Part shown: in pieces, positions 21,054-28,459 of the stretch | Position numbering within the stretch: the first letter of the stretch is position 1 | Layout: the number at the start of each line of letters is the position of its first letter | Source of the DNA: Acidimicrobiales bacterium | GTDB taxonomy: Bacteria; Actinomycetota; Acidimicrobiia; Acidimicrobiales; VFJN01 | Assembly (NCBI GenBank): GCA_035259985.1 | Contig: DATFVX010000047.1 | Location: 1 to 39,646 of the forward strand | Length of the DNA stretch: 39,646 nt | Reading direction: 5' to 3' | Notes under the pieces: model-generated | Seen by the model: the letters and a program-made list of their open reading frames with translations, nothing else | Database searches by the model: none | What the model was told of the DNA's origin: nothing | Translations under genes and position numbers: made by a program

Positions 21054-21140
21054 GGAAGGTTGCCAGAGCGGACGAATGGGGCGGCCTCGAAAGCCGTTGT
21101 GGCCTCCGGGTCACCGTGGGTTCGAATCCCACACCTTCCG
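21054..21140 (+). tRNA. tRNA-Ser (anticodon CGA)
   Basis: Acceptor stem GGAAGGT/ACCTTCC, anticodon arm GCGGC-CTCGAAA-GCCGT, long variable arm GTGGCCTCCGGGTCAC, T arm GTGGG-TTCGAAT-CCCAC, discriminator G. Confidence 0.9.
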
Positions 21141-21148
21141 CTCGCAGG

Positions 21149-21183
21149 TCCCGGACGGATCATCGTCCGGGATGGTCATTTTG
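21149..21183. terminator. Intrinsic terminator after tRNA-Ser(CGA), also facing the convergent VOC gene
   Basis: TCCCGGACG-GATCAT-CGTCCGGGA (9-bp stem) is followed by TGGTCATTTT. Confidence 0.7.
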
Positions 21184-21188
21184 GCTGG

Positions 21189-21593
21189 TCAGCCGACTGA
21201 CTGGCCGACCTCGATCAGGTGGCCGTCGGGATCGCGGACGTAGCACCGCAGCTCGCTGCCGAGGTCCTGGGGCGGGGTGAGGAACTGTGCGCCCCGGCCG
21301 TGCCAGTCGTCGTAGACGGCCTGGATGTCGGCGACCCGGATGTTGAGGAAGCTGCTCGTCCGATTCGGATCAGGCGGCGTCTCGAGGACGACCTCGGGCT
21401 TGTCGATCGTCGGCCCGCCGCCGACGTTGATGATGATCCAGGCGTTGGCGAGCTGGACGATGGACGGCTCCCCTGCCATGACCGTCTCGCCGCCCAGGAC
21501 GTCGGAGTAGAAGGCCGCCGATCGCTGCACGTCGTCGGAGACGATGAAGTGGGTCAACACGATGCCTTCGGAGGGGCGGGGTAGCTCGGCCAT
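21189..21593 (-). CDS. VOC (glyoxalase/bleomycin-resistance/dioxygenase) superfamily protein
   Basis: 134 aa. The pattern VLTHFIVSDDVQRSAAFYSDVLGG ... CYVRDPDGHLIEV is typical of a single VOC module. Confidence 0.8.
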   Translation of the reverse strand: MAELPRPSEGIVLTHFIVSDDVQRSAAFYSDVLGGETVMAGEPSIVQLANAWIIINVGGGPTIDKPEVVLETPPDPNRTSSFLNIRVADIQAVYDDWHGRGAQFLTPPQDLGSELRCYVRDPDGHLIEVGQSVG

Positions 21594-21614
21594 GAGGGCA
21601 TCCTTTCGCAGCGG

Positions 21615-23096
21615 TCAGCGGCGGGCGAGCAGGTCGAGGTGGCGGAGCCGTTCGTCCTGCGACTCGGTCAGCGGCGGGCCGCTCACCGCGTGGTGCGCCT
21701 CGGTGCCGGCGAGGATGCCAAGGCCCGCGACCGCAGGGCTGGCCTTGGCATCCTCCGCCGGCCGCGTCGGCGGTGGGGGCGTCTCGGGCTGGCAGACGCT
21801 GCCGGTGGGCGGGAGCCCCGGGGCGGCGAGCTCGGGCGGGTCGAGGAACGCCGGGCGTCTCCGGAAGTCCAGGCAGTCGAGCAGGTTGGACGCGTTGGCG
21901 TCGCGCCGGGTCAACGCGCCGAGGTTGAACTTCGTCTCGATCAGCCGCGGCACCGACGTGTGGTCATGCACGACGTGTGACACGTAGTTGCGCCGGGCGA
22001 ACGGGGAGATGACGAAGGCCGGCACCCGCAGGCCGTAATGGTCCCAGGCGGCGGGGGCGTCCGGGGTGGGCTCGACGTCGGGCGGGATGTCGTCGGGCGG
22101 CACCGCCCGCGGGGGGGCGACGTGGTCGTAGTAGCCGCCGTGCTCGTCGTACATGAACACGAGGACCGTGCGCGGCCACGCCGGGCTGGCGAGCACCGCG
22201 TTGATCACCGACGCGCTGAACGCCTCGCCCAGCTGGATGTCGCGCGGGTTCTCCTCGGTGTACGCAGTGACGCCGGGGCTGACGATGGAGACGTCGGGCA
22301 GCGTGCCGGCCCGACAGTCCGCCAGGAAGCTGGGAAACGTTCGCACCCGGTCGAGCCGCGCCCGCCACAGCGATGGGAACAGCGCGATGTCCGGGAGGTC
22401 CCACGCGTAGTCGAGCCACGAGATTCCGAACACGTCGAGCTTCTCCCAGATCGTGCCCCCGGCCGGGTGGGGCATGGCGAACGCCCGGCCGACGTCGGTG
22501 GTGGTGAGGTCCTGGCTGGTGGCGGCCTGCAGGTACATGCGGTTCGGGTAGGTCTGCGCCGGCGCGGACGCGAACCAGCGATCGCACAGCGGGAACGTCC
22601 CGGCGAGCGACCAGTAGAACGGCACGTCGGAGCCGTCCCAGTAGCGCATGGCGTTGGTGTTGTCGTTGTAGAGGAAGCCGTCCATGCGGCCCCCGTTGAT
22701 CTGCAGATGCGTGTTCTCCCACCGCTGGGAGACGCCGCGCCCGCTCTGGCAGGTGTCCGGCGCGTGGAACACGCGCACCGGCTCACCCGTCGTCAGCCGG
22801 TTGCTGTCCTGCGGCTCGCCACCCCGCAGCCGGTAGCCGTCGCCCCGCCGGAACGTGCCGAAGTAGGAGTCGTACGAGTGGTTCTCCTGCATGTAGACGA
22901 CGATGTGCTCGATCTGCGGCAGCAGGTCGACGCCCTCGGGCTTGCCGGGGTCGGGCCGGTCACCCGCCCGCCTGAGCCGGTGGCCGTGACCGGGCTGGCC
23001 CAGCCATGGGTGGCATCCGGTGAGCATGAGCCCGGCGCCGGCGGCGAGACCCTGGATCACGCGGCGGCGGGGCATGGGATCTGACATGCCGGTCAT
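21615..23096 (-). CDS. Phosphoesterase-family protein (phospholipase C / acid phosphatase AcpA type), Tat-signal lipoprotein
   Basis: The twin-arginine signal PRRRVIQGLAAGAGLMLTGC includes the lipobox LTGC. The family motif is MQENHSYDSYFGTF. The exact start among three nearby ATGs is uncertain. Confidence 0.85.
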   Translation of the reverse strand: MTGMSDPMPRRRVIQGLAAGAGLMLTGCHPWLGQPGHGHRLRRAGDRPDPGKPEGVDLLPQIEHIVVYMQENHSYDSYFGTFRRGDGYRLRGGEPQDSNRLTTGEPVRVFHAPDTCQSGRGVSQRWENTHLQINGGRMDGFLYNDNTNAMRYWDGSDVPFYWSLAGTFPLCDRWFASAPAQTYPNRMYLQAATSQDLTTTDVGRAFAMPHPAGGTIWEKLDVFGISWLDYAWDLPDIALFPSLWRARLDRVRTFPSFLADCRAGTLPDVSIVSPGVTAYTEENPRDIQLGEAFSASVINAVLASPAWPRTVLVFMYDEHGGYYDHVAPPRAVPPDDIPPDVEPTPDAPAAWDHYGLRVPAFVISPFARRNYVSHVVHDHTSVPRLIETKFNLGALTRRDANASNLLDCLDFRRRPAFLDPPELAAPGLPPTGSVCQPETPPPPTRPAEDAKASPAVAGLGILAGTEAHHAVSGPPLTESQDERLRHLDLLARR

Positions 23097-23635
23097 ACCG
23101 GCGCGGGACGGTACCGGATCCGGGAACCTGCGGCCCCGCTAGCGGAACAGCCGTGCGAGGGTGTATCCGCCCCCCCGCCGCGACCAGGCCGCCGACAATC
23201 GACACCGAGATGTAGACGAGTGCGACGCCCGCGCGGGCGAGCCCAACCCACAAGAACCGCATCAGCCTCCTCCAGATGTCGACCGAGTAGGAGCCATCGG
23301 CAGTGGTCGCTGCGGTTGTCGGCGAGCCCCATCGCCTTCGGGCGCCCATGCTACGTCCCCCCGCCCGGGACACACTCGAGTCGCGCAGCGGCCCCGCCGC
23401 CCGAAACCCCGGGGCCGCTGCGCCCGGCGTCGCCCCAGAGGCGCCGGCCGGTCTCTCTGACGACCCGTGGCGGTCGGGTCGTCCGGTCATAGATCGCGCG
23501 AGCACCGCGCTCCGTTACACCGACCACACGGCCGGGCCCGCCCGTAACGCGCGGTGACCCGCCACCCTGCGGCACCTACCCTGTGCCCGGGCTGGGATCG
23601 GCGGATCGAGGCGCGGGCAGGATGCGCAGACGGCC

Positions 23636-26600
23636 ATGACACACATGAACATCGACGAGCAGCGGATGCGGATGGTCGGGCCGACGGCCCGACTCGTGGA
23701 GTTCCTCCGCGAGCTGGCGAGGACCGGCCGCCCGCCCGTCCGCAGCGTCGACCGCCACCCGGTCGTGCGGTGGCTCTACGACCTCCCCGCAGAGCTCACG
23801 CTGGACACCGAGGCCGGGCCGGGCGAGACGGTCCTGTCGATCGACCCGGTGGCCTCGGAACCCCCGCCCTCTCCCCCGGCGGAGCTCGAGCCATGGCTCA
23901 GCCGGGCCGACATCCAGGACTCGGCGCTCGACGCGCCGGAGCTCCCCGACGCCATCCCCGACGACGCCCGCGACCAGGCCGTCCGCCGCTACCGGCCGTG
24001 GGTCGGTCGCTGGCAGGTGTGGGCGGAGGCCGACCGCCTCCTCGCGCCCCGCCGCTCGTGGTACGAGGAGCTGGCACGGGCGGGCCGCCAGCTCGAACAG
24101 CAGGACGACATGTACGAGCTGGTGATCGGCACCGGACTGCTCACGTGGTCCTCGCCGACCGGCGACGTCCGCCATCCGCTGCTGACCACGCGGGTCGACG
24201 TCAGGACCGATGCCGCCACCGGGCGGGTCGACGTCGTCGTCCCCGACCAGGCGACCACCAGCTTCGGCGACCGGGCGTTGCTCGAGGGACAGCCGGACTT
24301 CGACTCCCACCGGCCACAGCTGGTCCGGGACGAGATCCGCTCGGGTGCGGCCGTGCCGCTCGGGGACCACAACAAGGAGCTGCTCGCCCGCTGGCAGGCG
24401 CTCGCCCTCCGCCGGGCACTGCCCTACGAACATTCGTGGAAGCCGTCGGAGGCGGGCGAGCGGGGCCCCGACCTGCGCTTCGCGCCGGCGCTCATCCTGC
24501 GCGAGCGCGACCGAACCAGCCTGATCGACTACTTCGACCGCATGCTCGAGGCTCTGTCGGGCCCGACGGCGGCGGCGCCGCTCGGGCTGGCCCAGCTGCT
24601 GGCGGCGCTGGAGCCGGAGGACCGGCTCGCCTGGCTCGAGCGCGAGGGCGCCACCGACGGTGGAACGGTGGGTGGCGATCCGCTCTTCCCGCTGCCCGTC
24701 AACCCGGAGCAGCGCCAGATCATCGACCGGCTGCGCACCGACAACGGTGTCGTCGTTCTCGGTCCACCGGGCACCGGCAAGACGCACACGATCGCCAACC
24801 TCCTGTCCGCGCTGCTGGCTCGCGGCCAGCGCGTGCTCGTGACCAGCCAGAAGGCGCAGGCCCTTCGGGTGCTGCGCGAGAAGCTGCCGCCCGAGATCCA
24901 GAAGCTCTGCGTCTCGATGACCGACGTGGCGCGGGGTGGCTCCCGTGAGCTGGACGAGAGCGTCACCGCGCTGTCGGACCGCTACTCCACGTTCTCGGTC
25001 GCGCGCCATGAGGAGGAGACGCGGCGGCGCACCGCGGCGCGGGACACGGCCTGCCAGCGGGTCGCGCAGCTGACCGAGCGGATCCGCGCGCTCCGCGCCG
25101 CCGAGACGGAGGTGCATCCGTCGGTCGCCGATGGCTACGAGGGCACCAAGGCACGCATCGCGGAGCGGCTTCACGGGAACGCCCCGGCCTGCGACTGGAT
25201 GCCGACGCCGCTCCCCGCGGACGCGCCGTTCGATCCGCCGCTGCGGGTCGACGAGCTCGTCGAGCTCCGGGGCCTCCTGGCGTCGCGCACGCCGGAGCGG
25301 GTGGCACGGCTGCGCCAACTGTTCCCCGACCTGGCTGCGGTGCCCACCGGCGTAGCGATCCAGGCGCTGGTCGATGCCGAGACCGCCGCCGCCACCGAGG
25401 CGCAGGATGCTGCCAGCGAGCTGTCCATGGCGCTCTCGGCCCTCGATCGCGAGGATCTGGCGGCGGTCCGCACCGAGGTCGACCGGTCGCAGGCCGCGAT
25501 CCACGCACTGGGCCTCGGCCCCGACCCGGGGATGTGGGCCGACGACTGGCGCCGGCACGCGGTCGGCGATGCGCTGGCGCGGCGCGAGCTCGGGATCTGG
25601 CACCAGCTGGCGCAGCTCGGCCGGCACGCGGCGGTCGCCCAGGACCGCCTGAACTCGATCGGGCTCCGCACGGTGGCGCTGCCGCAGTTCGATGCCTACG
25701 GGCCCGGCAGCTTCGTTCACCAGCTCGACGCCGGACGCGCGCTCGCCGTGCACCTGGCGGCTGGCAGTCAGCTCAGGAAGCGCTTCCGGCCGGCCGTGCA
25801 GAAGCGCGCCGAGCGCCTGCTCGCGGGCGCGGCCGTGGATGGCGCCCCGATCACCGATGGCGCGCAGCTCGACTGCGTGATGGCCACGCTGGAGGCCGAG
25901 CACACCGCAGGCGTGCTCGCGGGGCACTGGGCGCTCGTCGGCGTCCACCTCGACCCGGGCCTGCCGATCCCCCGGCGCGTTGCCCAGCTCGTGGACCTGG
26001 CGACCGCGCTCGACAACGTGCTCGCGGTCGTCGCCGCCCGCGACGCCGTCGAGCGGCGCCTCGGCGCCCGCGGCGCCCGCGTCCCCCTGGCGGCGCCGAG
26101 CGACTGGGTGGGCTTCGCCGGCGTGCTGAGCGCGGTCCAGGCCCGGCTCGAGGCCGAGCGCGCGACGCAGGTCCTGCGCGACCTCGCGGCCCGCTTCGAG
26201 CTCGAGGCGCAGTCACCCGCAGCAGCTCCCGAGATCGGTCGGCTCGGAGCGGCGGTCGCCGCGCGTGACGTCGACGCCTACGGGTCGGCGCTGCGGGCGC
26301 TGGCCGGCGCGCCCGCCGAGCAGGCCGAACAGCTCCGCTGCGACGAGCTGCGGGGCCTGGTGGAGGCGGCGCACCCGGTTCTCGCCGACCTCCTCGACCG
26401 CACCTGCCGGGCCGACGAGTGGGACGGCCGGATCGGTTCCTTCCCGGCGGCATGGGCGTGGGGCAAGGCCAAGACGTTCCTCGACGGCGCCCGGGAGCCC
26501 GGCCTGGAGGACCGGCTGGCCGCGGAGCTACGCGACGCCGTCGATCGGGTCGGGCGAACGACCGCGGAGCTCGCGGCCGAGGAGGCCTGGGGCGAATGCC

Positions 26601-28150
26601 TGCTGCGCATGTCGGCCCATCAGGAGCAGGCCCTGCGGTCGTACCGGTCGAACATCGAGGACCGGGGCATGGGCACCGGCCGATGGGCGCCCCGCTACGC
26701 GGCCGCCGCCCGGGCGGCCATGATCGAGGCCCGGGACGCGGTGCCGGCGTGGATCATGCCGCTCCGCGACGTCGTCGACACCGTGCCACCGGACCAGAAC
26801 AGCTTCGACGTCGTGATCATCGACGAGGCCTCCCAGGCGAGCATCGAGTCGCTGTTCCTGCTGTGGCTGGCGCCGCGTGTGATCGTGGTCGGTGACGAGC
26901 GGCAGTGCGCGCCGTCCCAGGTGATCAGGGGCGAGTTGCAGCCGATCTTCGATCGGCTCGACGACTACCTCGCCGACGTGCCGGACTACCTGAAGCTGGC
27001 GTTCACGCCGAAGTCGAACCTGTTCAGCCTCCTGCAGACCCGATTCGGGTCGGTCATCCGCCTGCGGGAGCACTTCCGCTGCATGCCCGAGATCGTCGGC
27101 TGGTCGTCTCTCCAGTTCTACGCCGATGCGCCGCTGGTGCCGCTCCGCCAGTTCGGGGAGGAGCGCCTTCCGCCGCTGCGAACGATCCACGTCGCCGGCG
27201 CCTTCACCGACGGGAGCTCGACCCGGCTGCGGAACCCGCTCGAGGCCGAGGCGCTGGTCCGGGGCCTGGTCGCCTGCCTCGCGGACCCGGCGTACGAGGA
27301 CCTGACGTTCGGCGTCGTGGTGCTGCAGGGCAGCGGCCAGGTGCGGCTGATCGAGGACCTCCTCGAGCAGCGGGTGTCACCCGAGGAGTGGGAGCGGCGG
27401 CGGCTCCGCGTGGGCACCCCGCCCGACTTCCAGGGCGACGAGCGTGACGTCGTGTTCCTCTCGATGGTCGTCGCCGATCGCCGCCGCGCGGTCACGGCGC
27501 GCGAGTGGCAGCGCCGGTTCAACGTTGCCGCCAGCCGCGGCCGCGACCAGATGTGGCTCTTCCACTCGGTGACGCCGGACCTGTTGTCGCCGGCCGACCT
27601 CCGGCGGTCGCTCCTGTCGTACATGTCGGGCCCGCCGGCCCCGGCGGCGCTCGAGCGCTTCGACGACCTGACCTGGGACTCGGACACGCGTGAGCCCTTC
27701 GAGTCGCGCTTCCAGCAGCGGGTGTTCGTCGCGCTCCGGGACCGGGGATTCCACGCGACGCCACAGGTCGACGTCAACGGCCGGCGGATCGACCTCGTGG
27801 TGAGCGGCGCCAAGGGCCGGCTGGCGGTCGAATGCGACGGCGACGACTGGCACGCCGGGCGTGAGGCGCAGGTCGCCGACCTCGAGCGCGAGCTCGAGCT
27901 GCAGCGGGCGGGCTGGAGGTTCTGGCGGGTGCGCGAATCGGAGTTCTACGTGGACCCGGCGGCCGCCCTCGGCGGGCTGTGGACCACGCTCGAGTCCCGG
28001 GGCATCCGGCCGGGCGACGTCGTGGACGCGGGGAACGAGGCGGTGCCGCTGGTGGAGACCTGGGCGCCGACGACGCTGTCCGGCGAGGAGGGGCTCGATG
28101 GCCTCGACGGCGCCGACCCCGCCGAGCTGGACGTCGAGATCGGCCCCTGA
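23636..28150 (+). CDS. 1504-aa SF1 (UPF1/DNA2-like, AAA_11/AAA_12-type) helicase with DUF4011-like N-terminus, large helical insert and C-terminal PD-(D/E)XK (DUF559/REase-like) nuclease domain
   Basis: Walker A GPPGTGKTH (aa 376-384, nt 24761). Motif II VIIDEASQ (aa 1060-1067, nt 26813 on), then VVGDERQCAP, FQGDERDVVFLSMV and FNVAASRGRDQMWLF. The C-terminal nuclease-like core is RIDLVV...LAVECDGDDWH...GWRFWRVRESEF (aa about 1355-1440). Confidence 0.85.
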   Translation: MTHMNIDEQRMRMVGPTARLVEFLRELARTGRPPVRSVDRHPVVRWLYDLPAELTLDTEAGPGETVLSIDPVASEPPPSPPAELEPWLSRADIQDSALDAPELPDAIPDDARDQAVRRYRPWVGRWQVWAEADRLLAPRRSWYEELARAGRQLEQQDDMYELVIGTGLLTWSSPTGDVRHPLLTTRVDVRTDAATGRVDVVVPDQATTSFGDRALLEGQPDFDSHRPQLVRDEIRSGAAVPLGDHNKELLARWQALALRRALPYEHSWKPSEAGERGPDLRFAPALILRERDRTSLIDYFDRMLEALSGPTAAAPLGLAQLLAALEPEDRLAWLEREGATDGGTVGGDPLFPLPVNPEQRQIIDRLRTDNGVVVLGPPGTGKTHTIANLLSALLARGQRVLVTSQKAQALRVLREKLPPEIQKLCVSMTDVARGGSRELDESVTALSDRYSTFSVARHEEETRRRTAARDTACQRVAQLTERIRALRAAETEVHPSVADGYEGTKARIAERLHGNAPACDWMPTPLPADAPFDPPLRVDELVELRGLLASRTPERVARLRQLFPDLAAVPTGVAIQALVDAETAAATEAQDAASELSMALSALDREDLAAVRTEVDRSQAAIHALGLGPDPGMWADDWRRHAVGDALARRELGIWHQLAQLGRHAAVAQDRLNSIGLRTVALPQFDAYGPGSFVHQLDAGRALAVHLAAGSQLRKRFRPAVQKRAERLLAGAAVDGAPITDGAQLDCVMATLEAEHTAGVLAGHWALVGVHLDPGLPIPRRVAQLVDLATALDNVLAVVAARDAVERRLGARGARVPLAAPSDWVGFAGVLSAVQARLEAERATQVLRDLAARFELEAQSPAAAPEIGRLGAAVAARDVDAYGSALRALAGAPAEQAEQLRCDELRGLVEAAHPVLADLLDRTCRADEWDGRIGSFPAAWAWGKAKTFLDGAREPGLEDRLAAELRDAVDRVGRTTAELAAEEAWGECLLRMSAHQEQALRSYRSNIEDRGMGTGRWAPRYAAAARAAMIEARDAVPAWIMPLRDVVDTVPPDQNSFDVVIIDEASQASIESLFLLWLAPRVIVVGDERQCAPSQVIRGELQPIFDRLDDYLADVPDYLKLAFTPKSNLFSLLQTRFGSVIRLREHFRCMPEIVGWSSLQFYADAPLVPLRQFGEERLPPLRTIHVAGAFTDGSSTRLRNPLEAEALVRGLVACLADPAYEDLTFGVVVLQGSGQVRLIEDLLEQRVSPEEWERRRLRVGTPPDFQGDERDVVFLSMVVADRRRAVTAREWQRRFNVAASRGRDQMWLFHSVTPDLLSPADLRRSLLSYMSGPPAPAALERFDDLTWDSDTREPFESRFQQRVFVALRDRGFHATPQVDVNGRRIDLVVSGAKGRLAVECDGDDWHAGREAQVADLERELELQRAGWRFWRVRESEFYVDPAAALGGLWTTLESRGIRPGDVVDAGNEAVPLVETWAPTTLSGEEGLDGLDGADPAELDVEIGP

Positions 28151-28171
28151 CCGAGGGGCCGCCCTGGAGCC

Positions 28172-28459
28172 TCAGCTCTTGACGAGGCGCTCTATCGCGC
28201 GGGTGGCCTCGGTGACCTTCTCGGCGGCGTCGGGGGCCCCCGATGCCACGGCGTCGCTGACGCAGTGGTGGAGGTGCTCGTCGAGGAGCCCGACCGCCAC
28301 GCTCTGCAGGGCGCTCGTACAGGCGGATATCTGCGTCAGCACGTCGATGCAATAGGTGTCGGACTCCACCAGGCGCTGCAGGCCCCGCACCTGGCCCTCG
28401 ATCCGGCGCAGGCGCTTGAGGTAGTCGTCCTTGGTCATGGTGTAGCCGGCCACGTACAT
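28172..28459 (-). CDS. csoR: CsoR/RcnR-family metal-sensing transcriptional repressor (Cu-type C-H-C ligand set)
   Basis: 95 aa with KDDYLKRLRRIEGQVRGLQRLV, YCIDVLTQISA and EHLHHC (Cys ... His-x3-Cys). Confidence 0.88.
   Translation of the reverse strand: MYVAGYTMTKDDYLKRLRRIEGQVRGLQRLVESDTYCIDVLTQISACTSALQSVAVGLLDEHLHHCVSDAVASGAPDAAEKVTEATRAIERLVKS

Follow-up and report, generated by a model that had tools for sequence, protein, structure and literature searches.

We analysed a 39,646-nucleotide stretch of DNA from an Acidimicrobiales bacterium (GenBank assembly GCA_035259985.1, contig DATFVX010000047.1, positions 1 to 39,646 of the forward strand), hereafter the window, which carries on its plus strand, at 23636..28150, an ATG-initiated open reading frame (ORF) for a 1504-residue (aa) fusion of a helicase with a nuclease. 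Long spurious ORFs are frequent in this window, which has a GC content of 72%, and one of 790 aa runs antisense to the helicase-nuclease ORF. The GC contents of the third and second codon positions in the helicase-nuclease ORF (GC3 0.94, GC2 0.50) match those of the true genes of the window, and an identical protein (P0001) is recorded from an Acidimicrobiales metagenome-assembled genome as an 'AAA domain-containing protein'. The ORF, its translation and its codon signature confirm the 1504-aa frame proposed in an initial annotation of this DNA, and the helicase-nuclease is a genuine gene. Its description there as solitary is borne out as well: the gene stands alone between a divergent upstream neighbour and a convergent csoR gene 21 bp downstream. 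Scans for promoter and terminator consensus sequences gave no match, as expected for an actinobacterium of 72% GC.

From its start, the protein comprises an N-terminal domain (aa 1-350, 23636..24685), the first half of the RecA1 domain with motifs I and Ia (aa 351-484, 24686..25087; Pfam AAA_11, AAA_30 and AAA_19), an all-alpha insert (aa 485-1045, 25088..26770), the second half of RecA1 together with RecA2 (aa 1046-1315, 26771..27580), a Vsr-type PD-(D/E)XK nuclease (aa 1359-1452, 27710..27991) and an acidic C-terminal tail (aa 1453-1504, 27992..28147), all encoded on the plus strand. We modelled it with AlphaFold2, using 85 family sequences, in two overlapping stretches, aa 1-1130 (mean predicted local distance difference test score, pLDDT, 84.4; predicted template modelling score, pTM, 0.52) and aa 340-1504 (mean pLDDT 82.5; pTM 0.60). 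Given these pTM values the relative placement of the domains is uncertain, and the acidic tail was modelled with low confidence (pLDDT <60).

The motor was recognised by Pfam through AAA_11 (62 bits, aa 355-484 plus a second stretch in the second half of RecA1) and AAA_12 (57.8 bits, aa 1128-1308), the cut-off being 27 for both, and it carries helicase motifs I (GPPGTGKT, with K382), Ia (VTSQKAQAL), II (DEASQ, 1063-1067), III (GDERQ), a IV-like motif (REHFRC), V (FQGDERD) and VI (NVAASRGRD). Foldseek matched the motor model with probability 1.0 to SETX, IGHMBP2, Upf1, Aquarius and Dna2, and also to nsp13 and ZNFX1, at E values from 1e-9 to 1e-5; the second half of RecA1 with RecA2 matched SETX, IGHMBP2, Upf1 and Dna2 at 1e-9 to 1e-7. 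The motor is a UPF1-like helicase of superfamily 1B (SF1B), and Pfam, motifs and Foldseek thereby agree with the UPF1/DNA2-like SF1 helicase of the initial annotation. All ten motifs listed there, including the RecA2 set, were found at the residues given: GPPGTGKTH (376-384), VIIDEASQ (1060-1067), GDERQCAP (1086-1093), FQGDERDVVFLS (1265-1276) and NVAASRGRD (1296-1304) in the motor, IDLVV (1385-1389), ECDGDDWH (1399-1406) and WRFWRV (1427-1432) in the nuclease, and ELVIGTGLLTW (161-171) and HPLLTTRVDV (180-189) in the N-terminal domain.

The C-terminus had been called DUF559/Vsr-like; the Vsr-type half of that label stands, with REase_MTES_1575 (PF18741) scoring 93.5 bits against a cut-off of 38.2 over aa 1359-1452, and the other half does not, since DUF559 reached 15.5 bits, under its own cut-off. 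The proposed catalytic residues of the nuclease are D1386, E1399, D1401 and H1406. Among 119 family members compared, D1386 and D1401 are present in 119, E1399 in 104 and H1406 in 90, and the window protein has all four. The nuclease motifs line up residue for residue with those of genuine Hhe, DUF4011 and DUF3320 proteins; a misalignment at D1386, E1399 and D1401, which the initial annotation would have counted against its own proposal, was thus not seen. In the motor, K382, Q405, D1063, E1064, Q1067, Q1090, H1146, D1268, N1296 and R1301 are invariant in 119/119 members. Judged from these residues, both the helicase and the nuclease look active, and by analogy with the UPF1-like family to which it belongs the motor would translocate and unwind 5'->3' at the expense of ATP.

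The N-terminal domain was modelled with a pLDDT of about 80-93 as a helix of 47 residues and, after it, a beta-sheet core formed around the strands ELVIGTGLLTW and HPLLTTRVDV, and we propose it as a sensor or regulatory domain. The N-terminal 350 aa alone matched no Pfam family at E<=10 and no model in PADLOC or NCBIfam, and a profile of the family matched the N-termini of proteins from Sphingobium (E 2e-21) and Acinetobacter (E 5e-14). The DUF4011 signature that had been read in this region was not detected by Pfam in the window protein (E<=10) or in 240 relatives, compared to 110-129 bits for DUF4011 (PF13195) in genuine Hhe proteins. Alignment with hhalign against three genuine DUF4011 N-termini gave a marginal match (E 0.014, probability 3%) on the ELVIGTGLLTW...HPLLTTRV motif, pairing ELVLGTGLLsW...R.hLLtTrl of the family with ILYLALGFLEW...RYAPLFTIPV of Hhe, inside the Pfam DUF4011 span. 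A distant DUF4011 homology is plausible on this alignment but unproven. DUF3320, the check for which had also been suggested, gave no Pfam match in the window protein.

Walker A and Walker B are separated by 684 aa, in keeping with the insert of roughly 680 aa described previously as splitting the ATPase core. The insert responsible begins just past motif Ia (VTSQKAQALRVLREKLP) and stops just ahead of motif II. Mapping it by the motif order of Upf1, we take this position to be that of subdomain 1C, the 'prong' of UPF1-like helicases, which is a few tens of residues long. The segment is rich in Ala (21%), Leu, Arg and Gly, and AlphaFold2 predicted about 20 helices, the longest of 38 residues, and one small hairpin, at a pLDDT of about 85-93. 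Of the earlier description as helical or coiled-coil, the Ala/Leu/Arg-rich, helical part holds, and the model shows several helical bundles in place of a single long coiled coil. Among actinobacterial relatives of less than 60% overall identity the insert is colinear, with a gap fraction of 0.01 and 41% identity. Taken alone, it had no Pfam match even at E<=10 and none in PADLOC or NCBIfam. Foldseek searches of the Protein Data Bank (PDB) with the model of N-terminal domain plus insert returned no match at E<=1e-3, only fragments of helicase cores and low-probability long helices (dynein, Rad50, SMC/MukB), and a profile search of PDB sequences returned helicase cores only. A likeness of the N-terminal domain plus insert to SbcC/SMC-like ATPases, the sole matches among viral structures, was rejected as topological noise (template modelling score 0.06-0.11, root-mean-square deviation 30-50 A).

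An exhaustive phmmer search with the insert alone recovered 1,003 clusters at 50% identity, 474 of them at E<=1e-10, and in essentially all full-length matches it occupied residues ~485-1060 of proteins of 1,450-2,280 aa. This fixed position indicates that the insert marks one superfamily and is absent from other architectures. Walker A to Walker B spacing in real proteins was 684 aa in the window protein, 685 aa in an Acinetobacter plasmid protein, 683 aa in a Sphingobium DUF3320 protein, 648 aa in a cyanobacterial DUF4011 protein and 937-939 aa in Klebsiella and Vibrio Hhe; in profile coordinates it was about 600 in PDC-S37, about 520-650 in ProA and about 900 in Hhe, compared to about 100 in MkoA and PLuB. 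In a family member from Streptomyces the ProA model aligned across most of the insert, a hint of deep homology among the inserts. The split ATPase core noted earlier is therefore the hallmark of a large superfamily, which includes Hhe, ProA and PDC-S37-type proteins, and not peculiar to this gene.

The nearest profile matches of the window protein are anti-phage families. ProA (NCBIfam NF058533) was the best-scoring named family (178.7 bits), followed by PDC-S37 (PADLOC PDLC05009, 164 bits) and Hhe (NCBIfam NF042953, 111.4 bits). With ProA it shares a comparable Walker A to Walker B gap (profile positions about 773 to 1297) and the same nuclease; ProA differs in spanning about 1,900 positions, with about 650 before Walker A compared to 375 in the window protein. 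PDC-S37, a single-gene phage-defence candidate of 1,550 positions, has a near-identical layout, with Walker A at about 300-357, Walker B at about 931 and the nuclease at about 1230-1339, and profile positions 298-357 and 928-1339 aligned, but its N-terminal domain and insert did not. In Hhe (NF042953, PADLOC PDLC02194), too, one polypeptide unites an N-terminal domain, a UPF1-like SF1 helicase with a very long Walker A to Walker B insert and an MTES_1575 nuclease, and its gene likewise stands alone, in defence islands and on plasmids. Hhe differs in its size of about 1,900 aa, its gap of about 940 aa, its Pfam-detectable DUF4011 and its extra C-terminal sequence; only the helicase halves and the nuclease of the window protein aligned with it, the Hhe models of N-terminal domain and insert being unmatched, and Hhe occurs in Proteobacteria, whereas the clade of the window protein occurs in Actinomycetota. 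With cut-offs of 2000 bits for Hhe and 1500 bits for ProA, the window protein is not a member of either family as so defined; for the PDC-S37 model no curated cut-off is given. The comparison with Nhi made in the initial annotation turned out to be a poor one: PADLOC Nhi scored 11.7 bits (E 0.019) with no stretch aligned, and Nhi, although alike in concept as one stand-alone defence protein combining an SF1 helicase with a nuclease, has no meaningful sequence match, another size and domain order, and an unsplit core. Hhe, ProA and PDC-S37 are the relevant relatives.

Among other helicases, MkoA and MkoC of the Mokosh system matched the window protein through their helicase halves alone; Pfam found no phospholipase D (PLD) domain in the window protein, and no PLD gene adjoins it in the window. 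Eukaryotic Upf1, SETX/Sen1, IGHMBP2, Aquarius and Dna2 share the RecA1/RecA2 fold and motifs I-VI but have a 1C of a few tens of residues compared to about 560-680 aa of helices here, and they lack a C-terminal Vsr-type nuclease. In Dna2 the nuclease is N-terminal and of another type; in the window protein it is C-terminal and Vsr-type, and the N-terminal 350 aa gave no match. Full-length homologues that include the N-terminal domain and the insert do exist in Proteobacteria, among them the ~1,500-aa 'AAA domain-containing protein' of the Acinetobacter baumannii plasmid p3ABAYE (WP_000653919.1) and a Sphingobium plasmid protein of 1,937 aa (WP_081570538.1), which differs in adding a DUF3320 C-terminal region. 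The family profile aligned colinearly with both, scoring 618 on the Acinetobacter protein (C-terminal part of the insert E 6.5e-21) and 636 on the Sphingobium protein (nearly the whole insert E 1e-15). These homologues are only about 30-38% identical in alignable parts, belong to another phylum and are likewise uncharacterised. Literature searches on ProA, EruA, PDC-S37 and the DUF3320/DUF4011 architecture turned up no account of the actinobacterial family, and among the papers searched none described ProA or mentioned PDC-S37.

Full-length relatives, 46-55% identical across 99% of their length, are spread through Actinomycetota. Counting one genome per species, at least 584 species genomes carry the family, almost all of them actinomycetotal, including Rhodococcus, Streptomyces, Kitasatospora, Pseudonocardia, Gordonia, Nocardia, Micromonosporaceae, Streptosporangiales, Geodermatophilaceae, Kineococcus and Acidimicrobiales. 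Protein clusters mostly track taxonomy, with exceptions: an Actinopolymorpha copy falls within the Streptosporangiales cluster, Rhodococcus has two distinct clusters, and Iamia is no nearer to the window protein than Streptosporangiales are. Full-length members also reside on large Streptomyces and Tsukamurella plasmids, and a search of a phage collection found no member. The window protein belongs to an unnamed actinobacterial clade of Hhe-like helicase-nucleases. A 7.3-kb contig binned as Candidatus Methylomirabilota (JBKOVG010000088.1, our L016) carries a copy that clusters tightly with those of Micromonosporaceae and is likely a mis-binned contig or a recent transfer.

In 37 of the 119 relatives the acidic tail is followed by a C-terminal Lsr2-type DNA-binding domain (motif VRAWAR..G..V..RGRLP), and PF23359 is listed for relatives; the window protein ends in its acidic tail and lacks this domain. 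The Lsr2-ended members include P0034, P0046, P0048, P0041, P0016 and P0022, in which the domain is joined via the same acidic tail as that of the window protein. Several of these proteins bear the NCBI name 'histone-like nucleoid-structuring protein Lsr2', a misleading label for a helicase-nuclease of 1,580 aa.

To place the window gene among its close relatives, we gathered 80 metagenome contigs via the TIM-barrel gene downstream of csoR, one further contig (L002) being obtained separately. The csoR gene (28172..28459, minus strand; Pfam Trns_repr_metal), convergent with the helicase-nuclease, and the TIM-barrel gene are kept as a pair in dozens of these contigs, with or without the helicase. 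The helicase-nuclease was present only in L091 (identical), L092 (flanks 96% and helicase 85% identical) and L002. It was absent from L093 and L095, whose csoR and TIM-barrel genes are 95% identical and ABC exporter genes 89-91% identical to those of the window, and from all deeper relatives in the contig set with up to 10 kb of upstream sequence. In DNA alignments with L093 and L095, both helicase-free, the break on the right fell at 28170-28171, the stop codon of csoR, 20 bp beyond that of the helicase, and the left end of the segment shared with L092 and L002 lies at 23539-23542, 95 bp upstream of the ATG. These ends delimit a single-gene cassette of about 4.6 kb (23540..28170), common to the helicase-bearing relatives and missing at the empty sites.

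The cassette lies in a larger variable slot (21142-28170), whose conserved right edge is csoR and whose left edge is a tRNA-Ser(CGA) gene (21054..21141, plus strand) found by ARAGORN and Rfam; homology with L002 and L115 stops at 21142-21143, the exact 3' end of the tRNA. In the window the slot holds a glyoxalase, a phosphoesterase and the helicase-nuclease. L002 has instead a tetratricopeptide repeat (TPR) protein, a DUF4062-STAND protein and LtrA beside its helicase-nuclease; L099 and L100 have a CopA-type ATPase beside csoR (L099:5609-7942, L100:7335-9668); the helicase-free L095 has an rve integrase and a methyltransferase; and L115 has an extracytoplasmic function (ECF) sigma factor, a NUDIX protein and an ADP-ribosylglycohydrolase-phosphatase fusion. 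The window copy is an accessory gene in a tRNA-bounded variable slot. The csoR gene of the window has no adjacent copA, its usual operon partner, which is seen beside csoR in deeper relatives, and it seems that turnover of the slot has parted repressor and target gene. The 87%-identical copy of L002 (L002:9097-13630) is called as two ORFs, of 295 aa (the N-terminus) and 1,209 aa, and is either decaying through a frameshift or misassembled.

A neighbour-joining tree of the 1.1-kb csoR and TIM-barrel flank, built without support values, nested the helicase-free L093 and L095 within the helicase-bearing clade, and every outgroup lacked the helicase; this suggests that the gene was gained by the ancestor of a shallow clade (Jukes-Cantor distance about 0.1) and subsequently lost. 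Synonymous divergence (dS) was 0.39-0.47 for the helicase and 0.28-0.45 for the flanks, and on this equality the gene was co-inherited with its flanks within the shallow clade. The ratio of nonsynonymous to synonymous divergence (dN/dS) was 0.17-0.24 for the helicase overall, 0.07-0.18 for the RecA core, 0.17-0.29 for the N-terminal domain and insert, and 0.04-0.08 for csoR and the TIM-barrel gene. The helicase-nuclease is thus under purifying selection, with the N-terminal domain and insert held more loosely than the RecA core. Positive selection on the insert was considered and discarded, the region-wise values of 0.17-0.29 representing relaxed constraint at that resolution.

By Pfam, the remaining genes of the window include dnaX-ybaB-recR, VIT1, a MocR-type regulator, the glyoxalase and phosphoesterase of the slot, csoR, the AP_endonuc_2-family TIM-barrel gene and an ATP-binding cassette (ABC) exporter. 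Upstream of the helicase-nuclease, on the opposite strand, Rfam detected a fluoride riboswitch (RF01734, 23281-23345, minus strand; 45.7 bits, the gathering score being 34). After it come a strong ribosome-binding site, a hydrophobic ORF of 41 codons (23139-23264, minus strand) and a PLC-family phosphoesterase with a twin-arginine translocation (Tat) signal (21615-23096, minus strand). The fluoride exporter genes crcB and eriC were not seen after the riboswitch, and such a regulon is unusual for this riboswitch class. The initial reading of the window had passed over both the riboswitch and the nearby tRNA-Ser gene.

Defence genes were found beside family members in at least 7 of about 12 lineage-level contexts. 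A Streptomyces plasmid carries a Wadjet-type operon and IS256 near its copy; on Streptomyces and Kitasatospora chromosomes a DUF4145 protein and then DrmD (589 bits) follow; and Microbispora has a Type ISP restriction-modification (R-M) enzyme. The surroundings in Actinopolymorpha comprise MAD7, a NERD-kinase, UvrD, Prim-Pol, GIY-YIG, KilB and a transposase, and those on contig L174 SNF2+PLD, Type III R-M, AAA_15 and UvrD-PD-(D/E)XK proteins. Kineococcus (L173:10001-18930) has two paralogues in tandem, of 1,531 and 1,424 aa, after which come a stand-alone Vsr endonuclease, Fic and a fragment of AbiEii, and Iamia has ISL3, a second SF1 helicase, a PD-(D/E)XK protein and a PIN/DUF433 pair; the context of L003 is metabolic. 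Of the distant proteobacterial homologues, that of Acinetobacter lies directly after BREX-1 and that of Sphingobium between a restriction endonuclease and AbiE, and genuine Hhe genes have as neighbours either DUF262 or SLATT and Qat genes.

No partner gene was universal across the 65 loci searched for one, which indicates that the gene works alone or with lineage-specific partners. Two subclade-specific neighbours, an SF2-helicase/sigma-70 ORF and the DUF4145 protein with DrmD, are missing from the window. The SF2/sigma-70 ORF, of about 1,350-1,560 aa, adjoins the helicase-nuclease in a subclade of six genera (L036:6731-11407, minus strand; L031, L033, L035, L067, L071, L075 and L077). Its SF2 part is PbeA-like (198 bits) and its complete sigma-70 (regions 1.2-4) is MzaA-like (308 bits; PRK05901 522 bits), and the ORF may merge two genes. 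ADP-ribosylglycohydrolase genes occurred three times near members or in the helicase-free slot (L001:14826-16295, L004:4991-6085 and L115:6116-7636), that of L115 being fused to a 'Swiss Army Knife' type dual-specificity phosphatase; this recurrence may be a coincidence or an association with conflict systems.

On the evidence of sequence and comparative genomics, we favour the reading, to which we assign a probability of about 0.6, that the product of the window gene is a defence enzyme of the Hhe, ProA or PDC-S37 type, acting alone as a single polypeptide. We prefer it because the motor and nuclease appear intact, the nearest families are anti-phage, the window copy occupies an accessory slot, and relatives lie in defence islands and on plasmids. 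The initial annotation had already suggested a one-gene defence system, and the empty sites and defence neighbours point the same way. Under this reading, the N-terminal domain and the helical insert would restrain the motor and nuclease at rest, and a cue made by an invading element would release them. DNA of abnormal structure would be the most plausible cue, for instance an intermediate of replication or recombination or a free single-stranded 5' tail. Once released, the motor could load on single-stranded nucleic acid, travel 5'->3' with ATP and bring the C-terminal nuclease to DNA for cutting, so that replication of the invader, and possibly of the cell, would be halted.

Nucleases of the Vsr and restriction-endonuclease type act on DNA, and Lsr2 binds AT-rich, horizontally acquired DNA in high-GC Actinobacteria. 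The type of the fused nuclease and the DNA-binding modules carried by relatives (Lsr2-type in 31% of the actinobacterial family, DUF3320 in the proteobacterial relatives) therefore make DNA the likely target. DUF3320 is described as overlapping a winged helix-turn-helix (PMC3710099). Hhe has been used experimentally as a single-gene helicase-nuclease defence; a screen of phage genes proposed seven T7 DNA-metabolism genes as its triggers, and co-expression of Hhe with a Bas63 gene was toxic, the authors leaving the mechanism open (10.1101/2024.10.10.617714). Both observations fit the sensing of replication-associated structures or activities. A more specific version, which we regard as improbable, holds that the N-terminal domain and the helical module of about 560 aa form a new kind of sensor gating the SF1B motor-nuclease, and that foreign DNA would be told apart partly by base composition, through the Lsr2-type AT-rich binder present in about a third of members, giving restriction-like immunity free of methylation.

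Several observations weigh against assigning the gene to defence. Its own neighbours in the window are housekeeping or metabolic genes, and no integrase, transposase or att repeat was found in the window, as the initial annotation had said of mobile-element genes; when we searched for att-like copies of the 3' end of tRNA-Ser and for direct or inverted repeats at the flanks, only chance-level GC-rich matches appeared. The composition of the gene is native, in agreement with the host-like GC content and codon style reported before, and, taken with a dS equal to that of the flanks, it offers no sign of recent transfer. In Micromonosporaceae-type genomes the gene sits in stable synteny between an aldehyde dehydrogenase and a tryptophan dioxygenase, in the secA...prfB stretch, and in the Rhodococcus opacus group it sits equally stably among acyl-CoA metabolism genes. 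The protein scores far under the curated Hhe and ProA cut-offs, and its N-terminal domain and insert match no defence model in PADLOC or NCBIfam. The survey of contexts samples about a dozen lineages and is no statistical comparison with a background, and the proposed autoinhibition, trigger and polarity are modelled on UPF1-like helicases and Hhe.

Some of these points would suit a host enzyme of DNA repair or of the replication fork which, like Dna2, trims 5' flaps or stalled forks and has no immune role. Dna2 is among the best sequence and fold matches of the motor, the window backbone holds dnaX, ybaB, recR and the AP_endonuc_2-family gene, and purifying selection, native composition, flank-like dS and the stable synteny in the Micromonosporaceae-type and R. 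opacus loci would all be expected of such a gene. We nevertheless consider it unlikely, because the gene is present or absent at the same site in relatives whose flanks are 95% identical, which also contradicts, in the lineage of the window, the initial annotation's caveat of an old resident repair factor and the strict, order-wide vertical synteny that would have gone with it. The plasmid copies, the tandem paralogues and the repeated R-M, DISARM, Wadjet, MADS and toxin-antitoxin neighbours speak against it too, as do the exclusively anti-phage nearest profile families and a domain order and nuclease type unlike those of Dna2. A related idea, also unlikely in our judgement, is that the enzyme acts mainly against plasmids and other mobile elements, or in competition between elements, and degrades incoming or AT-rich DNA in the manner of Wadjet or Lsr2. 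The full-length members on large Streptomyces and Tsukamurella plasmids, one of them adjoining a Wadjet operon, the Lsr2-type domain of 37/119 members and the failure to find the family in the phage collection are in its favour; the window protein, however, has no Lsr2 domain, and most of the systems that adjoin family members elsewhere are anti-phage. Among solved structures, the closest are RNA or RNA/DNA helicases (SETX, IGHMBP2, Upf1 and Aquarius) and the helicase halves match MkoA and MkoC, so that the motor might instead track transcripts, as Upf1, SETX, IGHMBP2 and MkoA do, in RNA surveillance or R-loop removal. An RNA target is, in our view, very unlikely given that the fused nuclease is of the Vsr or restriction-endonuclease type, that the modules appended in relatives are the DNA binders Lsr2 and DUF3320, and that the protein, unlike Mokosh or the original MTES_1575 protein, has no PLD or HEPN RNase module.

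A single-gene helicase-nuclease defence protein is an already known kind of system, and the split core is its hallmark. New here are a clade that defence models miss at their cut-offs, an N-terminal domain and insert with no structural or profile match, and a window copy that shows presence and absence at one site. For the window alone the result is modest, namely an accessory defence-type gene in a tRNA-bounded variable slot. Its wider interest is that Hhe-type single-gene helicase-nucleases are confirmed anti-phage proteins and that the long split ATPase core now defines a much larger superfamily, in which an unnamed branch of Actinomycetota, carried by at least 584 species genomes, falls under the cut-offs of current defence-annotation models and forms a family for annotators to add. 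Together, its natural Lsr2-fused and Lsr2-free variants provide compact material for asking what the N-terminal domain and the insert sense.

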